NCBI GenBank assembly: GCA_041739345.1
Contig: JBGSNZ010000012.1
Span: forward strand, 1-42,363
Reading direction: 5' to 3'
DNA from: Acetivibrio sp.
Lineage (GTDB): Bacteria; Bacillota; Clostridia; Lachnospirales; Lachnospiraceae
Length of the DNA stretch: 42,363 bases
This document shows positions 1 through 42,363 of the stretch, one piece after another. The notes beneath the pieces are model-generated. The model had not been told where the DNA came from. It saw only the letters and a program-made list of their open reading frames with translations, and did not search any database. The first letter of the stretch is position 1. Every line of letters starts with the position of its first letter. The position numbers were made by a program, and so were the translations under genes.

Positions 1-135
1 CCCCCCTCAAGATAAGATTTCCCATAGCAAAAGCTAGTAAGACCCCTGAAAGACCATCAGGTAGATAGGGCAGAGGTGGAAGTGCAGTAATGCATGTAGC
101 TGACTGTTACTAATAGGTCGAGGGCTTGACCAAAT
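1..135 (+). rRNA. rrl: 23S ribosomal RNA, 3' terminal fragment (domain VI)
   Basis: Recognisable homology to the 3' end of bacterial 23S rRNA: ...GATAGG..GTGGAAGTGCAGTAATGCATGTAGCTGACTGTTACTAATAGGTCGAGGGCTTGACC parallels the E. coli 23S terminus ...GATAGGCCGGGTGTGTAAGCGCAGCGATGCGTTGAGCTAACCGGTACTAATGAACCGTGAGGCTTAACC. The window starts inside the gene. Confidence 0.7.
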
Positions 136-219
136 GGTTCAGTTTTAGAAAAAATGGATGATGTTCTTACAATGTGTAGTTTTGAAGGTATATCCTTCTT
201 AGAAGCGAAAGTTTCTTAA

Positions 220-293
220 GGCCTAGTGGCTCAGTTGGTTAGAGCGCCGCCCTGTCACGGCGGAGGTCGTCGGTTCGAGTCCGATCTGGGTCG
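220..293 (+). tRNA. tRNA-Asp (anticodon GTC)
   Basis: Cloverleaf readable by eye. Acceptor GGCCTAG/CTGGGTC (2 GU pairs), D-arm GCTCAGTTGGTTAGAGC, anticodon stem CCGCC/GGCGG with loop CTGTCAC, T-arm GTCGG-TTCGAGT-CCGAT. Confidence 0.8.
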
Positions 294-340
294 TTTAAAC
301 AAGATAGTTTAGAAGTCTTTATTATATAGAGATTACCCAT

Positions 341-413
341 GGGATCTTAGCTCAGCTGGGAGAGCATCTGCCTTACAAGCAGAGGGTCACAGGTTCGAGC
401 CCTGTAGGTCCCA
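341..413 (+). tRNA. tRNA-Val (anticodon TAC)
   Basis: Acceptor GGGATCT/AGGTCCC, D-arm GCTCAGCTGGGAGAGC, anticodon loop CTTACAA, T-arm ACAGG-TTCGAGC-CCTGT. Confidence 0.8.
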
Positions 414-418
414 TTGTT

Positions 419-491
<73 letters not shown>

Positions 492-533
492 TTTACTTAT
501 AATATAAGTAAAAAGCAATTTAAAAATTCAAAT

Positions 534-615
534 GGATGGATTCCCGAGTGGCCAAAGGGGGCAGACTGTAAATCTGTTAGCTGCGCTTTCGAAGGTTCGA
601 ATCCTTCTCCATCCA
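534..615 (+). tRNA. tRNA-Tyr (anticodon GTA), class II with long variable arm
   Basis: Acceptor GGATGGA/TCCATCC perfect, anticodon loop CTGTAAA, long variable arm (TTAGCTGCGCTTTCG), T-arm GAAGG-TTCGAAT-CCTTC. Confidence 0.8.
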
Positions 616-651
616 TTTCAACAAGTAAATTGTTGAGTTAATAATTATTGT

Positions 652-725
<74 letters not shown>

Positions 726-730
726 TTTTT

Positions 731-804
<74 letters not shown>

Positions 805-829
805 TTGTGTTGTCTAAATTGGAAACTAC

Positions 830-902
830 GGGATATTAGCTCAGTTGGTAGAGCACTTGACTTTTAATCAAGTTGTCCGGGGTTCGAACCCCCGATGTCT
901 CA
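830..902 (+). tRNA. tRNA-Lys (anticodon TTT)
   Basis: Acceptor GGGATAT/ATGTCTC (2 GU pairs), D-arm GCTCAGTTGGTAGAGC, anticodon stem CTTGA/TCAAG with loop CTTTTAA, T-arm CGGGG-TTCGAAC-CCCCG. Confidence 0.75.
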
Positions 903-914
903 CTATTGGAACAG

Positions 915-25986: not shown

Positions 25987-25990
25987 ATTA

Positions 25991-26330
25991 AATTCTGGGT
26001 TAACTACGAAGGACGGACGCGAGTTTTTGTTGATAAGTGACGCCAGGAAAGGCTGATCAATTTTTATACTTTTTACAATTTACACGGCTCCCATGCTAGG
26101 ATTTTATATCAATCGTATAAGCATTCCACGTAATCTCTGGACGTCGAAAAAATAGCTCTAAGGAGCTATTTTTTCGACAGAGTTTACGTTCCATATACTT
26201 TAATGATATAAAATCCTAGCATGGGAGCCGTGTAAATTATACTATAGATTTATGAGCTCAGCCTTTCATGGCTGACTACGAGATACGGACTCGCTGATTT
26301 TCTAGCGTTTTATAAACCAAAACTAGAATT
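25991..26330 (+). repeat. type-1 foldback/MITE-like repeat, copy A (long imperfect palindrome with AATTCTGG termini)
   Basis: Begins AATTCTGGGTT 4 bp after the ABC ATPase stop and ends ..AACCAAAACTAGAATT (inverted terminus). Internally a ~300-bp imperfect hairpin centred on GCTCTAAGGAGCTAT. About 85-90% identical to rc(29388-29722) and to 42021-42222. Confidence 0.8.
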
Positions 26331-26706
26331 AAGAGTGAAGTGGTAAAAAGTCAAAGGTAGTTGTCATGTGATACACGGTCTTTGACTTTTTACTGTAAAC
26401 ATTCCAAACAACAGCGGCACCATTTTTCAAAATCAGCAAAAAAGCGGTGCTTATAATCTTCCTAATTCGAATGGAGGGGATGGCCTGTCCTTTGCATCAT
26501 TTAGCATATGAGATGGAAACTCTATTGAAAAAGAAGCTCCAAAGAGCTTCTTTTTCAATGATTAGAGGTTCTATCGAATGCTTATGCGGTTGATGCTAAG
26601 GACAGGCCATCCCCTCCATTCGAATGTCGAAACCATAAAAGCACCGTTTTCTTGCGTGACTTTCCCAAAACACGACGCGTACGTCATGAACAGTTAAACC
26701 AGAATT
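26331..26706 (-). repeat. type-2 foldback repeat, copy B (inverted relative to copy C)
   Basis: Ends ..AAACCAGAATT (rc AATTCTGGTTT). Contains a near-perfect nested palindrome TTCGAATGGAGGGGATGGCCTGTCCTT...AAGGACAGGCCATCCCCTCCATTCGAA with core GAAAAAGAAGCTCCAAAGAGCTTCTTTTTC. rc(B) aligns with 28934-29387. Confidence 0.75.
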
Positions 26707-26716
26707 CTTGAAATTA

Positions 26717-28753
26717 CTAGATGCTTTCGTTCGGAGTTTCTTCTTCTATTTTAAGACCGTCATCCATTTTTTCTTCTGTTTCACTAGGTGCGTTTACATT
26801 ATTTTCTACAACTTCGTCCGTTTTAATTGTTACGCCGAATTTTTCAAGAGTGATAAACTTTAGAAGCGTATCTATTATAGTTCCACTTCCGCCATCTTTG
26901 TTGTCTCCCATATTTACTACGGTCTTTGGAACGATATCAACCTTAGCACTCTTGATTGCATCCGATAATTTTTCTGAAACATCCTGAATAACACGATATT
27001 CTGCTCCGCCATAAGCCTTAACCTGAGCATCAATTGCACGGGCCTTAGCTAAACCTACATTAGATTCCTTAGATGCTTCCGCTTCACCTTCTAAGGTAAT
27101 TTTTAAGGAATTAGCTTTTGCAAGAGCAACAATCTGATTTGCTTCCTGCTCCGCTTTACTTGCTAATGCAGCACCGCTATTACGTTCGATTTCAATCTGA
27201 ATCTTTGAATTAGTAAGGAAGCTTTGCTGTTCCGCAACTGCCTCAGCTTCGCGGAGGGATTTTTCACTTTCCGCTGCAGATTGTTGTTTCTGGTAGGTTA
27301 CTTTCTTTTCTTCCGCAATCTGTCTTTCGCGTAATTGCGTTAGGATATTCTCAATCTGCTTATCTTCTACCGGTGATTTCGGAGTACCGATTAATACTTC
27401 TTCTAATTGAAGATTATATTTCTGGAATTTATCCCTCATCTCACCAAGGGATTTTTCACGGATTTCACTACGTTCCTGAATAAGTTCAATTAAGGTTTTT
27501 GTCTGAGCTACATCTTTGAAATATGCACTAACAAGTGGGTCAAGGGATTGGTTAACCAGCATATTAATATCACCAAAACGTTGGATGACCCAAGGAGCCT
27601 GCTTGTAATCAATATGCATAACAACAGATAGCGGTAAGGATGGCTCAAATGCATCCTTTGTAATGATATCTACTTCGGTCAAATTTTCATCATATTTATG
27701 AGTTCCGACTTCAGATTTGTTCCATTTTAAGATGATGTTCGTAGTTGGAACAAGAACGACTTTACCTGCATCCGTATTAAATGCATATTTACCAGGCATC
27801 AAAGGTTTTTCTAATACGCCCTTGCAGCCTTGACCAACCAGCTCGCCGTGTTTATAATCAGCACCCGTTGTATCCACACCCTCCGTACCAAAGAAGGAAA
27901 CAACAACGCCCACGAAACCGATAGGAACAACAGTCTTTGGTCTGAATTCTATGGTAGCAAACAACCGGTTAATGTAATAGGTACCATCCGTTAATACTTG
28001 TAACTGCTTACCTCTTTTTCCGCCAATTTCCAAGAATTTTTCTGGGTCTTGGAAACTTGCATGTTCCGCGCCCATATCAGGGGCAATGATTTCGCCTTGT
28101 TCAAGAGACTGTCCATCATGAATCGTTACGATGCCCATCAAATCACTATCCTGACTATTATTTCCCATGATTACTACCGGTCGAAAAGCAGTTCTATTAT
28201 TTAATGTTTCTTGCATGCTAGCCAACTCTTGTCTTTCATGTACATTACCACCACTAATAGCTTTAATATCGTTAGGGGTGATTACAATAAATTGTGCTAA
28301 GTTAATTGCATATGTACCTTCACGTAAGATGCCTCTTTGTGGACCTCTTTGACCGCCAGACTGTAAGAATCCTTTAACATCTTGAAAATTATTAGCTTCT
28401 TTTACTACCTTGCCAAGTGTTTGTACCGGGTTAAGTGGATGCCCGTCTTTTGCAAATACATAGGCAATTTGTCCTTGGGGTACAGTAATTAGTGGATACC
28501 TATGAATTTTGTACATTAACACAGATTTAAAATGAATACCACCACGAAGAACGTCAGGCTCATAACCAGCTTCCCCATTTAATGCAATGATAGAATCTTT
28601 CAAAGAACCTTTCATACTCCACCATTTTTCTACTACAGCTACTTCATTTGAATTAATAATCCTTAATCCTAAAATCTGAAAGATTAGCAAATATAGCCCT
28701 AATAACACTCCTAGTCCAATCAAAATGATTGGTAACATTGAAATAATTTCCAT
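26717..28753 (-). CDS. floT: flotillin-family (SPFH/band-7) membrane protein, FloT-like
   Basis: 678 aa. N-terminal TM hairpin, SPFH domain, long Ala/Glu/Gln-rich coiled-coil 'flotillin' region (...AEEKKVTYQKQQSAAESEKSLREAEAVAEQQ...EQEANQIVALAKANS...) and acidic C-terminal tail. RBS AAGAGGGA 6 nt before the ATG. Confidence 0.85.
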   Translation of the reverse strand: MEIISMLPIILIGLGVLLGLYLLIFQILGLRIINSNEVAVVEKWWSMKGSLKDSIIALNGEAGYEPDVLRGGIHFKSVLMYKIHRYPLITVPQGQIAYVFAKDGHPLNPVQTLGKVVKEANNFQDVKGFLQSGGQRGPQRGILREGTYAINLAQFIVITPNDIKAISGGNVHERQELASMQETLNNRTAFRPVVIMGNNSQDSDLMGIVTIHDGQSLEQGEIIAPDMGAEHASFQDPEKFLEIGGKRGKQLQVLTDGTYYINRLFATIEFRPKTVVPIGFVGVVVSFFGTEGVDTTGADYKHGELVGQGCKGVLEKPLMPGKYAFNTDAGKVVLVPTTNIILKWNKSEVGTHKYDENLTEVDIITKDAFEPSLPLSVVMHIDYKQAPWVIQRFGDINMLVNQSLDPLVSAYFKDVAQTKTLIELIQERSEIREKSLGEMRDKFQKYNLQLEEVLIGTPKSPVEDKQIENILTQLRERQIAEEKKVTYQKQQSAAESEKSLREAEAVAEQQSFLTNSKIQIEIERNSGAALASKAEQEANQIVALAKANSLKITLEGEAEASKESNVGLAKARAIDAQVKAYGGAEYRVIQDVSEKLSDAIKSAKVDIVPKTVVNMGDNKDGGSGTIIDTLLKFITLEKFGVTIKTDEVVENNVNAPSETEEKMDDGLKIEEETPNESI

Positions 28754-28933
28754 TCGTTTTCCCTCTTTCTTTTATAAAGTCAACTATTTACACATAGGAT
28801 TGTGCAAAAGGTGCTCCCCTAGAAACGGAGGCTCCCTAATTCCTTTTGCATTCCTAATATATATAATATCACAGTTTATTACATTATGTTTAACTATATG
28901 AGATTTTTAATTGTTTTCAAGGCATAATGATTT

Positions 28934-29387
28934 AATTCTGGTTTTCCTACGCAGGACGGACGTGGGGGCTTTTGGAAAGTCACGCAGGATGAGCGGTGAG
29001 TATATGGTTTTCGAAATTCGAATAGAGCACCGGGGCTGGTCTTAAAATCAGACGCATTAACCACTCGGCAGAACCTCTAAGCAAGGCAGAATGAGCTCTT
29101 TGGGAGCTCATTCTGCCTTGCTTAGAGGTTCTACCTCATAATGCTAAAATGCTTTTAAGACCAGCCCCGGTGCTCCATTCGAACTAGTAAGACTATGACC
29201 ACTGCGCATTTTGCTGGTTTTTGGTAAACGCCTCGCTGTTGTCTGAAATGTTAAAGTAAATACTGGAATTTATACGAAGATAGTAGTAAAAAGAGCAGGT
29301 GATGCCGTTGTTATTTGGTAATTTGCAGAAAAGAATTATTTATATCTCACTGGGTTTGCTTTTGACATTTTACCGAATGCTCCCAAA
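28934..29387 (+). repeat. type-2 foldback repeat, copy C
   Basis: Starts AATTCTGGTTTTCCTACGCAGGACGGACG (same 5' module as copy A). Nested palindrome CGAATAGAGCACCGGGGCTGGTCTTAAAA...TTTTAAGACCAGCCCCGGTGCTCCATTCGAA with core CCTCTAAGCAAGGCAGAATGAGCTCTTTGGGAGCTCATTCTGCCTTGCTTAGAGG. The distal part is homologous to rc of B. Confidence 0.75.
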
Positions 29388-29722
29388 TTCTGGTTTTTAC
29401 TATATGAAACGATTGTAAACCAGCGAGTCCGTATTTCGTAATCAGCCACGAAAGGCTGAGCTCATAATCTATCATTCAATTTACACGGCTCCCAGGCTAG
29501 GATTTTATATCATTAGAGCATATGGAACGTAAACTCTATCAAAAATCGGCTCCCAAGAGCCAATTTTTCGATTGCTTAGAGGTTACGTGGAATGCTTATG
29601 CGACTGATATAAAATCTTAGCCTGGGAGCCGTGTAAATTGTATAAAGACAAAACTGCTCAGGCTTTCCTGGCGTCACTTATCAACAAAAACTCGCGTCCG
29701 TCCTTCATAGTTAAACCGAAAT
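29388..29722 (-). repeat. type-1 foldback repeat, copy D (inverted copy of A)
   Basis: rc(D) aligns base-for-base with A over ~335 bp with scattered substitutions and small indels. Confidence 0.8.
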
Positions 29723-29800
29723 CTAAATCTTTACTTTGAGATAAAAATTGCGTATAATAAAATTAAATTTAACGGTTTGTGAGTATAGGGAGGATGAAAT

Positions 29801-29953
29801 ATGGATAAGTTATTTAGTGACGACGATTTGGCTGATTTATTGGCAGAGCTTGATACTGAAAATAACAAGGTACCGATTGAAGATGATCCGGAAATGGAAG
29901 CTGCCCAAAGAAGATACACCGAAATTATTAGGAAGCACAAGGATGACAAGTAG
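29801..29953 (+). CDS. small acidic hypothetical protein (50 aa)
   Basis: ATG 6 nt after a strong GGGAGGA RBS. Clean 50-codon ORF MDKLFSDDDLADLLAELDTENNKVPIEDDPEMEAAQRRYTEIIRKHKDDK. Below the 60-aa cutoff of the ORF track. No family recognised. Confidence 0.35.
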   Translation: MDKLFSDDDLADLLAELDTENNKVPIEDDPEMEAAQRRYTEIIRKHKDDK

Positions 29954-30017: not shown

Positions 30018-30064
30018 AGTGCGTATATATTCCGCTTATGGATATAAGTGGATTAAAATATTTA

Positions 30065-30326
30065 AAATGCATGGAAAAGAAGAGTAGTCTGATAGGTTAC
30101 ATTACAGAGAATCCCGGTAGCTGAGAAGGGATATGGAGAATGCAGATGAAGATGGTCTTGGAGCAGAGTAACTGAGGTGTTATGATAAGCTTAGGTTACG
30201 ACGGTAGCACCCGTTATCGTGCAGACTGTTATGCAGTCATGGAGGCTTTTGTCGCAAGGCAAGGCAAATTAAAGTGGTACCACGAGATTATAGCTCGTCT
30301 TTAAGAGATTAAAGACGAGTTTTTTG
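30065..30326 (+). promoter_or_regulatory. T-box riboswitch leader (Met specifier) controlling metG
   Basis: Conserved T-box sequence AAATTAAAGTGGTACCACGAG (30266-30286) overlapping the antiterminator. Terminator CTCGTCTTT-AAGAGATT-AAAGACGAG plus T6 (30293-30326). Stem-I region with GA motifs (AGAGTAG / ACAGAGAAT) and AUG triplets in the specifier region (GGAGAATGCAGATGAAGATGG). Confidence 0.75.
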
Positions 30327-42020: not shown

Positions 42021-42222
42021 AATTCTGGTGTAATGAATGACGGACGCGAGTCTTGGTTGTTAAGGGACGCCATAAAAGGCTGAGCATTTTTGTTTTCCGC
42101 CAATTTACACGGCTCCCATGGTGGGCTTTTATATCAATCGCATAGGAATTCCACGTAACCTCTAAGCAATCGAAAAATCGGTTCAAGGGAAGCCGATTTT
42201 TGATAGAGTTTGCGTTCCATAT
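42021..42222 (+). repeat. type-1 foldback repeat, copy E (truncated, lacks the distal right arm)
   Basis: AATTCTGGTG..GACGGACGCGAGT...GACGCC..AAAGGCTGAGC...CAATTTACACGGCTCCCATGG...TTTTATATCAATCGCATAGGAATTCCACGTAACCTCTAAGCAATCGAAAAATCGG..AGCCGATTTTTGATAGAGTTTGCGTTCCATATA is colinear with A and rc(D). Confidence 0.75.
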
Positions 42223-42284
42223 AAGGCTGCTGAAAAACTACTGTTTTTTATTGCTCTCAGCAAAGATAATTATCCCTAATAAAA

Positions 42285-42336
42285 AAATAAGAGTAAAAAT
42301 GGCTTCATTTTTCCCATTTTTACTCTTATTTTTTTC
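42285..42336. terminator. bidirectional rho-independent terminator
   Basis: AATAAGAGTAAAAATGG - loop - CCATTTTTACTCTTATT flanked by A7 and T7. Confidence 0.65.
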
Positions 42337-42363
42337 ATATTTTTATGTTTTTTTGGTTCATTC

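Follow-up and report, generated by a model that had tools for sequence, protein, structure and literature searches.

Correia/NEMIS elements, RUP and BOX of S. pneumoniae, ERIC/IRU and the bcr1-18 repeats of the B. cereus group are bacterial MITEs or structured intergenic repeats. The attC sites of integrons measure 57–141 bp, stand in direct orientation after each cassette and need IntI, while REPINs are about 100 bp long. REPINs and BIMEs are REP doublets mobilized by RAYT, a Y1 HUH transposase (Bertels & Rainey, 2011; PMC3116915). Bacterial MITEs have been described as 'generally less than 300 bp' and miniature derivatives of IS91/IS801 as one-ended rolling-circle products, with GGAC being one of the listed IS801 end/target tetranucleotides (PMC3189936).

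Here, we analysed a 42,363-nucleotide stretch of DNA from Acetivibrio sp. (Lachnospiraceae; hereafter the window), in which a flotillin gene, floT, is bracketed by four non-coding elements, A to D. These belong to an apparently undescribed family of ~340-bp hairpin-forming, non-coding intergenic repeats. The best explanation of the locus, which we regard as probable, is that four copies of this dispersed family inserted around a resident floT.

The bracket around floT

The features of the bracket, and of a fifth copy of the repeat at the end of the window, are as follows.

25992–26329, plus strand: element A, type-1 foldback (repeat search, BLASTN, folding; nhmmer E 1.5e-105)
26008–26051, plus strand: 44-bp A head tract identical to a D tract (reverse complement of 29663–29706)
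26330–26392, no strand: A–B spacer with a small hairpin, GGTAAAAAGTCAAAGG...CTTTGACTTTTTAC (sequence, folding, spacer alignment)
~26393–26705, minus strand: element B, type-2 foldback (BLASTN, folding, type-1 HMM aligned over positions 7–333)
26717–28753, minus strand: floT-like SPFH/Band_7 gene (YqiK-type flotillin), 678 aa (ORF and domain assignment)
28754–28934, minus strand: floT 5′ region, inside the bracket, with promoter-like sites, e.g. TTGAAA-16-TATAGT at 28920–28893
28935–29269, plus strand: element C, type-2 foldback (repeat search, BLASTN, HMM)
29270–29386, no strand: C–D spacer (spacer alignment, comparison with L017)
29387–29722, minus strand: element D, type-1 foldback (repeat search, BLASTN, HMM, loci of relatives)
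29663–29706, minus strand: 44-bp D partner of the A head tract
42022–42223, plus strand: 5′ half of element E, the fifth copy, type 1 (BLASTN, HMM)
42224–42363, no strand: terminal part of an IS1182-type IS, bearing the terminal repeat AGGCTGCTGAAAAAC...; it interrupts E at TTCCATAT and runs off the window

When the four elements were compared with the window by BLASTN, A (25988–26331) aligned with 29726–29386 in inverted orientation at 84.6% identity over 345 bp (E 4e-104), and B (26389–26706) with 29260–28934, likewise inverted, with 70.5% identity across 329 bp (E 3e-29). The same inverted arms were recovered by a repeat search of the window. Matches in direct orientation were weaker (71% for A to D), so that the mirror order type 1(+)/type 2(−)/floT(−)/type 2(+)/type 1(−) is correct. 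The sequence-only reading had thus rightly described A/D and B/C as inverted homologues, arranged in mirror order around floT, and the 3.7-kb block as a single large inverted repeat centred on the gene, albeit an imperfect one. Its sizes held for A and D (~340 bp) but not for B and C, for which the 380–450 bp given had counted in the spacers (26330–26392 and 29270–29386); after boundary refinement, all four elements measure ~320–340 bp.

The elements sit tightly against their neighbours. The head of A (ATTCTGGGTTAAC..GGACGGACGCGAG) begins 5 nt past the stop of an ABC ATPase gene and its hairpin tip lies at 26147–26174, while the head of B, at 26705, lies 11 nt beyond the floT stop (tip 26528–26555; tail terminus absent). 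On the other side, the C head adjoins the floT promoter (tip 29085–29117), and the D head at 29722 touches the −35 box of the promoter of a small ORF and metG (tip 29541–29568). A motif resembling the hairpin of the A–B spacer also occurs 3′ of the D and L017_D tails and may, by its position, be an extension of the type-1 tail; the right part of the C–D spacer (from ~29357) is kept beside the D tail in L017. The spacers of the two pairs have a short hairpin motif in common and no extended alignment. As had been noted, the window encodes no complete transposase, but its last 140 bp (42224–42363) are the end of the IS1182-type IS. This IS splits E, whose head lies 14 nt past the stop of a TetR gene, at its centre, E being interrupted rather than truncated.

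A dispersed family of polar foldback repeats

About ten loci of the repeat family were found in the window and related metagenome contigs. In addition to E, copies lie behind an unannotated ORF that we tentatively read as rpiB-like (L012), as a type 1 plus type 2 pair behind a DUF1858 gene (L015), beside another gene whose end the repeat tail abuts (L014), and behind the chitinase and purM genes of L018; a short variant is present in L024. Since these copies adjoin unrelated genes, floT is not a specific partner of the repeats. The family was not found in plasmids, phages or IMG/VR, and its host range is probably a narrow, Velocimicrobium-like clade of Lachnospiraceae. Pairwise identities of type-1 copies are 72–86%, except for the orthologous D and L003_D (93%) and for L014 and L013 (90% over only 67 shared columns). 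In this alignment D is 82% identical to A and 80–83% identical to copies elsewhere and, by this measure, nothing sets the A/D pair apart.

Each of the four elements is a near full-length foldback of ~340 bp; folding gives a single long hairpin, at −145 and −159 kcal/mol and with z-scores of about −15 and −14 relative to dinucleotide shuffles. The copies share a conserved head, in which ATTCTGGTTTAAC is followed by CGGACGCG(A/G)G and next by (G/C)TGACGC.A.GAAA; their ends read ATTCTGG(T/G)TT... and ...AACCAGAAT, their tips are terminator-like, and no ORF is conserved among them. A central box, ATCA..CGCAT.A.CA.TC.....AACCTCTAA, is present once per element and always on the head-first strand. 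Judged by their sequences, A, D and E, as type 1, and B and C, as type 2, represent two subfamilies within one polar family; the type-1 HMM spans the type-2 copies full length.

The long arms differ in sequence between the subfamilies and keep their complementarity. Pairing is maintained in 94.6% of cells across copies, and double changes occur in 19 of 100 pairs, compared with 6.9 ± 1.8 in shuffles (none of 500 shuffles reached 19); the 36-bp helix 5 alone contains eight double changes and no one-sided change. Arm-to-arm or ectopic conversion could explain this compensatory pattern, with no need for selection on a single-strand intermediate. The head-first strand has 129 G:U pairs and its complement 61, with the same direction in all 10 independent copies, and the consensus pairs show 29 G:T against 14 A:C mismatches. 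This asymmetry is suggestive of strand-specific single-strand folding, and mutational bias could be part of the cause of the approximately twofold G:T excess. The hairpin centres of both B and C are gone from strain L003 (for C, 28983–29204), and short-read contigs break at hairpin centres; such losses and breaks are an instability typical of DNA palindromes.

Several of these properties would also be expected if the repeats were transcribed head-first, as 3′ UTR/terminator modules or independent RNAs, and selected for termination, mRNA stabilization or RNase III processing. Most of the copies beside genes (A, B, E, L012, type 2 of L015 and both L018 copies) have a head that is sense-oriented after the upstream stop, the tips resemble bidirectional terminators (A-run, stem, T-run), and both the G:U excess of the head-first strand and the significant covariation fit a structured RNA. 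However, the heads of C and D face the promoters of divergent genes and have no good co-oriented promoter, and in L014 it is the tail that abuts the gene end. The changes in helix 5 are all Watson–Crick doubles with no G:U intermediates, which is better explained by arm-to-arm copying of DNA, and presence/absence, centre deletions and IS targeting are DNA-level behaviour. Likewise, Rfam 15 gave no match in 25991–29722 at the gathering score, and E-values up to 10 added only long-hairpin noise from miRNA models, far below cut-offs. We consider an RNA-level role of this kind improbable.

floT and its sites without repeats

floT is a conserved chromosomal gene, not cargo. In L020, 213 bp separate the start of floT from the small ORF and metG, both C and D being absent; this floT is 93% identical over N-terminal residues 25–93 and has the same orientation relative to metG as in the window. 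The site 3′ of the ABC ATPase gene is empty in L022 and L027. At the site orthologous to D, an element is present in L003, L017, L018 and L019 but not in L020 or L022, and the D-site junction is identical to the nucleotide in four species, which indicates that the D insertion is old; among the loci examined, no recent transposition event was caught. Orthologues of floT with 83–84% identity stand in other contexts without repeats. The architecture had seemed unfamiliar around flotillin genes, and indeed the bracket is absent from the orthologous flotillin loci examined (L004–L007 and L020); empty sites, proposed by the sequence-only reading as a check, do exist in relatives. The floT without C and D in L020, the empty L022 and L027 sites, the dispersal of the copies, the ordinary D–A identity and the unalike spacers together indicate that floT occupies its ancestral position and that the repeats arrived around it.

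The same observations bear on the suggestion, also made from the sequence, that the block is a composite mobile unit, in which the ~750-bp inverted blocks would be the ends of a transposon or cassette that moves floT whole. The mirror-image architecture speaks for such a unit, as does the ABC operon–metG slot, which in various relatives holds floT, a nitroreductase or a surface protein gene. Moreover, the nearest species (L024/L017) have an A-head remnant and a full D, and no 85–98%-identical floT from them is in the protein database. The last point may be explained by assembly breaks: the hairpins break the clade's short-read assemblies at their centres, which is expected to fragment MAGs and to hide genes between repeats. 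In contrast, the repeat-free floT of L020, in the same place and orientation, largely refutes a composite transposon. The repeats are found singly and paired by unrelated genes, A and D resemble each other no more than copies elsewhere, the spacers lack extended alignment and the outer ends lack common target duplications. In addition, floT orthologues elsewhere have no bracket, base composition is even throughout the block, and the elements encode no protein. We give the composite transposon almost no weight; the bracket is, in our judgement, quite probably the product of repeat colonization.

A further possibility is that recombination between A and D, RecA-dependent or site-specific, flips the segment 26.05–29.66 kb as a regulated switch or a recurrent polymorphism. 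A and the reverse complement of D match perfectly over the 44-bp head tract, at which the other 27 pairs all differ at 5–12 of the 44 positions. By its sequence this tract looks like a recent, putative A-to-D gene conversion, a signature which implies that the outer copies have paired and do interact. A match of 44 bp is long enough for RecA recombination by minimal homology lengths. However, conversion does not need a crossover, the longest identical run between B and the reverse complement of C is 13 bases, and no recombinase gene lies nearby. Only a single orientation was seen: that of the window is shared by L003, the only other strain with the bracket (97–99% identical), and by the L020 floT relative to metG. 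A flipped segment would also take the floT promoter and the terminator-like repeats along, so that orientation should not alter expression and no switch function is apparent. An invertible switch or recurrent polymorphism is highly doubtful, and a rare RecA-dependent inversion is possibly the most that the bracket allows. The bracket has no demonstrated function.

Mobilization and comparison with known systems

In the proposed colonization, copies would have inserted into both intergenic regions flanking the pre-existing flotillin gene, each side receiving a type 1 plus type 2 pair, tail-to-tail with heads outward, to give the mirror-image look. Given two tail-to-tail pairs, mirror symmetry is an even chance. 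We infer that the copies, themselves non-autonomous, rely on an enzyme encoded elsewhere to spread them in trans. The likeliest route would be action of an HUH-type enzyme (REP/REPIN-RAYT, IS200/IS605 or IS91-like) on the folded head-first single strand, rather than cut-and-paste, and the inserted copies would then be homogenized through ectopic and arm-to-arm conversion. The window contains no transposase or autonomous partner with the repeat termini, and a search of 185,579 species genomes with the terminal pattern yielded only three hits, which are taken as chance (unrelated taxa; ~4 expected by rough estimate).

Cut-and-paste would apply if the repeats were classical MITEs, i.e. internally deleted, IS5/PIF-Harbinger-like DDE derivatives with terminal inverted repeats ATTCTGG...CCAGAAT and a 3-bp TWA duplication. 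The repeats are indeed short, non-coding and multi-copy, with terminal inverted repeats of ~8–12 bp and presence/absence between relatives. A has TAA and C has TTA on both sides, the heads usually follow TTAA, CTAA or TTAG, and a DDE IS of the IS5/IS1182 group occurs in these genomes. Yet three of the five complete copies (D, L017_D and L003_B) lack matching duplications, and the A boundary is uncertain because A and D share sequence beyond their tails. The elements have ends unrelated to those of the IS1182-type IS (AGGCTGCTGAAAAA), and strand-specific boxes and G:T asymmetry are unexpected for a double-strand cut-and-paste substrate. No autonomous IS with the same ends was found in the 185,579 species genomes, plasmids, phages or IMG/VR. 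A classical MITE origin appears unlikely. It is conceivable, albeit unlikely, that the repeats form a class of giant strand-polar 340-nt hairpins, an analogue of REPINs and attC, whose folded single-stranded DNA would be bound by an HUH enzyme (Y1 or IS91-like Y2), with boxes on the head-first strand only and the other arm kept complementary by copying, and whose heterotypic tail-to-tail pairs would both mark the genes between them and favour their turnover. If true, this would account for the differing genes of the ABC–metG slot.

Collectively, an eye-catching flotillin–transposon reading is replaced by a documented repeat family, useful for asking how repeats spread without an obvious transposase. 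Gene content at the locus turns over between close relatives, so that complete genomes would allow a test of whether repeat pairs are linked to gene replacement nearby.

Like a composite transposon or invertible segment, the locus has a single gene between long inverted repeats; unlike either, its repeats are not ISs, encode nothing, have independent histories and are 70–85% identical, while floT is ancestral at the site and its promoter lies inside the bracket, rendering orientation functionally neutral. attC sites are also sequence-variable, structure-conserved imperfect palindromes with terminal boxes, strand-specific folding and single-gene neighbours. Here, in contrast, copies are inverted around the gene and the R-box GTTRRRY/RYYYAAC is not conserved (GTTTAAC fits RYYYAAC in B, D and L013, not in A, C, L018 or L019). 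An integron cassette was rejected on the inverted copies, the inconsistent R-box and the lack of an integrase gene in the window.

With Correia, RUP, BOX, ERIC and bcr elements, the repeats share small size, lack of coding capacity, multiple copies, terminal inverted repeats, intergenic positions often abutting gene ends, stable predicted hairpins, modular subfamilies and a possible terminator or stability role. They differ in being at or above the size limit (~340 bp), in complementarity over nearly the full length, in heterotypic tail-to-tail pairs, in a target duplication that fits only A and C, and in having no identified parent IS. IS91/IS801 derivatives are likewise non-autonomous fragments, theirs being mobilized in trans by a Y2 HUH transposase, and GGAC repeats are present in the head of our elements; the IS801 derivatives have one IS end in common and lack the foldback structure. 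At one locus only, L024, an A-head remnant is fused to an IS91-family transposase fragment, to which the arms show no detectable homology.

No RAYT (Y1 HUH) gene lies within the 42-kb window. Compared with REPINs, the repeats are three to five times longer (~340 bp), with arms of ~165 nt rather than REP size. Each repeat is a foldback over its whole length, with a strand-specific, one-sided central box, the GTAG-type REP head is not conserved, and the host belongs to the Lachnospiraceae rather than being a proteobacterium or cyanobacterium. As in REPINs, however, the copies are extragenic and non-coding, inverted units form a hairpin in single-stranded DNA or mRNA, singlets and inverted clusters coexist and persist at orthologous sites, the transposase is absent from the element, and the hairpin is conserved rather than the sequence. 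The family thereby provides a Firmicutes case of long, structure-conserved, strand-polar palindromic repeats with concerted evolution, centre deletion and IS targeting.

Foldback elements around floT and their relatives

BLASTN within the window aligned element A (25988-26331) with the reverse complement of element D (29386-29726) at 84.6% identity over 345 bp (E 4e-104), and element B (26389-26706) with that of element C (28934-29260) at 70.5% over 329 bp (E 3e-29). Repeat finding on the window returned the same arms. Both methods recover the four non-coding blocks described in the sequence-only reading, and the alignments bear out its description of A/D and B/C as inverted homologues, the latter pair being more diverged. 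The size of ~340 bp that it had given for A and D held, but its larger figures for B and C had counted in two spacers; with refined bounds, all four elements measure about 320-340 bp.

Features of the floT block and the fifth copy
25992-26329: element A
~26393-26705: element B
26717-28753, minus strand: floT, encoding a 678-aa SPFH/Band_7 protein of the YqiK/flotillin type
28935-29269: element C
29387-29722: element D
42022-42223: element E, a fifth copy, its head starting 14 nt past the stop of a TetR gene
42224-42363: end of an insertion sequence (IS), present as an intact copy in the related metagenome contig L012

Every one of the four blocks is a foldback over almost its full length, with folding energies of -144.8 kcal/mol for A and -159.3 kcal/mol for the B region (z about -15 and -14 respectively, against dinucleotide shuffles). 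Because RNAalifold lost the long stems through gaps in a mixed alignment of full and partial copies, the structure was mapped from single-sequence folds instead. In the alignment of type 1 (A, D, E and relatives), 94.6% of cells are paired, compared with 31-44% in slid controls, and two-sided changes occur at 19 of 100 pairs versus 6.9 +/- 1.8 in shuffles, a count reached by 0 of 500. Helix 5 (36 bp) carries double changes at eight pairs and one-sided changes at none. The hairpin is actively maintained. Folding also yielded more G:U pairs on the head-first strand (read from head to tail) than on its complement (129 vs 61), and all 10 independent copies lean the same way; likewise, G:T outnumbers A:C among the consensus pairs (29 vs 14).

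Searched with the type-1 core, the JGI metagenomes yielded four true contigs and two chance matches, and contigs with MetG and ABC-ATPase homologues (L017, L018, L019 and L024) supplied more copies at orthologous and new sites.

Copies in related contigs
L012: type-1 copy after an unannotated ORF, which we read as rpiB-like
L013: orthologue of E
L014: solo type-1 copy
L015: type-1 and type-2 pair, tail to tail, beside a DUF1858 gene
L018: contig of a Velocimicrobium sp. MAG

A type-1 profile matches the type-2 copies B and C along their entire length, so types 1 and 2 are subfamilies within a single family. Common to all variants are a head (ATTCTGGTTTAAC, CGGACGCG(A/G)G and (G/C)TGACGC.A.GAAA), a central box of ~37 nt (ATCA..CGCAT.A.CA.TC.....AACCTCTAA) and a tip made of an A-run, a short stem-loop and a T-run. 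The central box occurs exactly once per element, every time on the head-first strand. The sequence of the long arms varies by subfamily and locus, and their complementarity is kept. Shorter or diverged variants (L024 15120-15290; L018 11870-12340) combine the same head and central box with different or far shorter arms; in the short variant and in the D copy of L018 the central box is located in the loop.

Rfam gave no relevant match at gathering or permissive thresholds, searches of plasmids, phages and IMG/VR gave no family match, and our literature search turned up no relevant account of MITEs or foldback repeats in Lachnospiraceae. The exact terminal pattern matched only three times (Flavobacteriaceae, Roseicyclus and Acetobacter) in 185,579 species with one genome each, against ~4 chance matches by our own rough estimate. 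We take these matches in unrelated taxa as chance, so that a family with this exact terminus is absent from the species representatives. The elements are a new family of bacterial intergenic palindromic repeats, an unusual variant in size and polarity.

Insertion of the repeats around a resident floT

The sequence-only reading had seen in the block the configuration expected of a composite mobile unit, or of a segment able to invert or excise. Its remark that the window encodes no transposase or recombinase holds for complete genes. A flank empty of repeats in a relative and the dispersal of the family contradict the composite unit. The related strain L003, whose flanks are 97-99% identical, has the same A-B-floT-C-D layout. 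In the more distant L020 (MetG 89% identical), floT has the orientation seen in the window, and only 213 bp separate its start from the conserved 50-aa ORF ahead of the T-box and metG; there is no trace of C or D. Residues 25-93 of its product are 93% identical to those of the window, and the full L020 floT was not found among the 120 homologues listed. In L027 (same organism as L020) and L022, ordinary sequence and no family member follows the ABC ATPase gene. Flotillin orthologues in other genera (83-84% identity) occupy unrelated contexts without repeats, and base composition is even throughout the floT block. Given these empty sites, repeat-free orthologues and flat composition, floT is not cargo; the repeats went into two intergenic regions flanking a floT already present. 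At least the D insertion is old, because its junction is identical to the nucleotide in the window, L003, L017, L018 and L019.

The interval bounded by the operon of an amino-acid ABC transporter and by the unit of small ORF, T-box and metG (window 25987-29800) is a small hypervariable locus whose content differs among close relatives.

Content of the ABC-metG interval
Window, L003 and L020: floT
L022: nitroreductase
L027: 298-aa membrane protein and a CMD-family gene
L024: IS91 fragment and an 878-aa surface protein (Big_2/CBM_X2)

No floT at 85-98% identity is on record, in contrast to MetG and ABC, for which there are relatives at 94-96%; either floT was lost from the locus in the nearest species, or its repeat-flanked 2.5-kb contig is systematically dropped by assemblies.

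Other observations concern neighbouring genes. The 50-aa ORF (29801-29953) lies shortly before the T-box leader of metG (30063-30305), a position conserved in L017-L020 and L022; it had no Pfam match above threshold and only a weak sub-threshold one to RnlA_toxin. In L021 (53-2818; GCA_029782595.1), a MetG homologue is called as 921 aa with repeated tRNA-synt_1g matches, followed by a separate tRNA_bind ORF, which probably reflects a misassembly or an artefactual frameshift. At the start of the window (1-903), seven tRNA genes (Asp, Val, Thr, Tyr, Met, Phe, Lys) come immediately after the 3' end of a 23S rRNA gene (1-133), and 5S rRNA had no match anywhere in the window.

Pairing, instability and exchange between copies

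Every pair that could be examined (A-B, C-D, the L015 pair and the L018 chitinase/purM pair) is arranged tail to tail with heads outward. The three with assignable subfamilies (A-B, C-D, L015) each join one type 1 to one type 2; the two L018 copies are variants left without subfamily and stand outside this count. As either type may lie proximal on each side of a gene, the symmetry of two such pairs around floT is an even chance. The pairs do not resemble duplicates of a single 750-bp block: a short hairpin motif is all that their spacers have in common, spacer lengths are unequal (about 15, 60, 115 and >100 bp), and the identity of A to D (82% over the alignment) is unexceptional beside the 72-86% of most other type-1 pairs. 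Plausibly, pairing is heterotypic because two copies of one type placed tail to tail would form a near-perfect palindrome of 700 bp and be lost.

The palindromes are unstable. L003 has lost 28983-29204 of C (222 bp; each junction shows CGCA microhomology) and the tip of B (~26492-26609, ~118 bp); both are symmetric palindrome-centre losses, centred on the hairpin. Short-read contigs with floT terminate in the B and C centres. Element E, seemingly truncated, is split by an IS whose intact copy in L012 encodes a DUF772 + DDE_Tnp_1_6 transposase of the IS1182 type and has the ends AGGCTGCTGAAAAA... In L012 this IS (371-2050) splits a second type-1 copy at the TTCCATAT site that it also occupies in E (window 42224-42363), in opposite orientation, which suggests that it targets the centre of the type-1 palindrome. 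A third copy (L017 1-135) sits at a different place; the end of the L024 contig proved not to be adjacent to this IS end.

Copies also exchange sequence. Over a 44-bp head tract (26008-26051), A and D of the window show 0 differences; all 27 other copy pairs show 5-12, and window D differs from the orthologous D of L003 at six positions. The alternative state is common to the D copies of L003 and L017, so the conversion ran from A to window D. Evolution is faster in the elements than around them: D is 93% identical to its L003 counterpart, within surroundings of 97-100%.

Given these 44 bp of perfect identity and the evidence of A/D pairing, inversion of the floT segment is mechanically possible. 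On the whole, the earlier interpretation is supported only in part. L003, the only other bracketed strain, has the orientation of the window, as has floT in the repeat-free L020. With a promoter inside the segment, inversion implies no switch function.

Possible routes of spread

These data establish that the foldback family is polar and non-coding, that its copies are dispersed and some sites empty, that the arms change in a compensatory way, and that copies undergo central deletion and ectopic conversion. The spread of the family would be non-autonomous, driven by an enzyme encoded elsewhere. The main alternative to the route that we favour would make the elements classical MITEs of the DDE kind, each insertion duplicating a 3-bp TWA target. 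The flanks TAA/TAA at A and TTA/TTA at C fit such a duplication, but three other complete copies do not, and A and D share sequence past their tails, which makes the boundary of A itself uncertain.

The elements may act at the RNA level, as most gene-adjacent copies lie head-first behind a stop codon and their tips look like bidirectional terminators. However, C and D face promoters, no co-oriented promoter of their own is present, and the all-or-none double substitutions in helix 5 resemble DNA copying rather than RNA selection. Integron attC sites were ruled out by orientation, size and an R box that is not conserved.

We favour a single-strand, hairpin-recognising route of the HUH type, because just one strand bears the conserved boxes, the head-first strand tolerates G:T wobble, and structure rather than sequence is conserved. 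In L024-L026, a 35-nt A-head remnant is found at the orthologous site behind the ABC gene (nhmmer E 0.022 in 117 kb) and is joined to a 64-aa piece of an IS91-family Y2 transposase (Pfam 1.6e-15; tblastn to annotated IS91 transposases). Remnant and Y2_Tnp fragment (L024 10747-10952) directly follow the ABC ATPase stop, with a terminator next. L024 comes from the nearest species, and the fragment is the sole enzyme-like sequence found touching any family member. Derivation of the type-1 arm from it was rejected, since only the 35-nt head aligns. The element head holds GGAC repeats, and GGAC is one of the IS801 end/target tetranucleotides (PMC3189936). An IS91-like enzyme behind the spread is a single, weak lead. 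In conserving structure over sequence, the elements resemble REP/REPIN-RAYT systems (PMC3116915), IS200/IS605 and attC.
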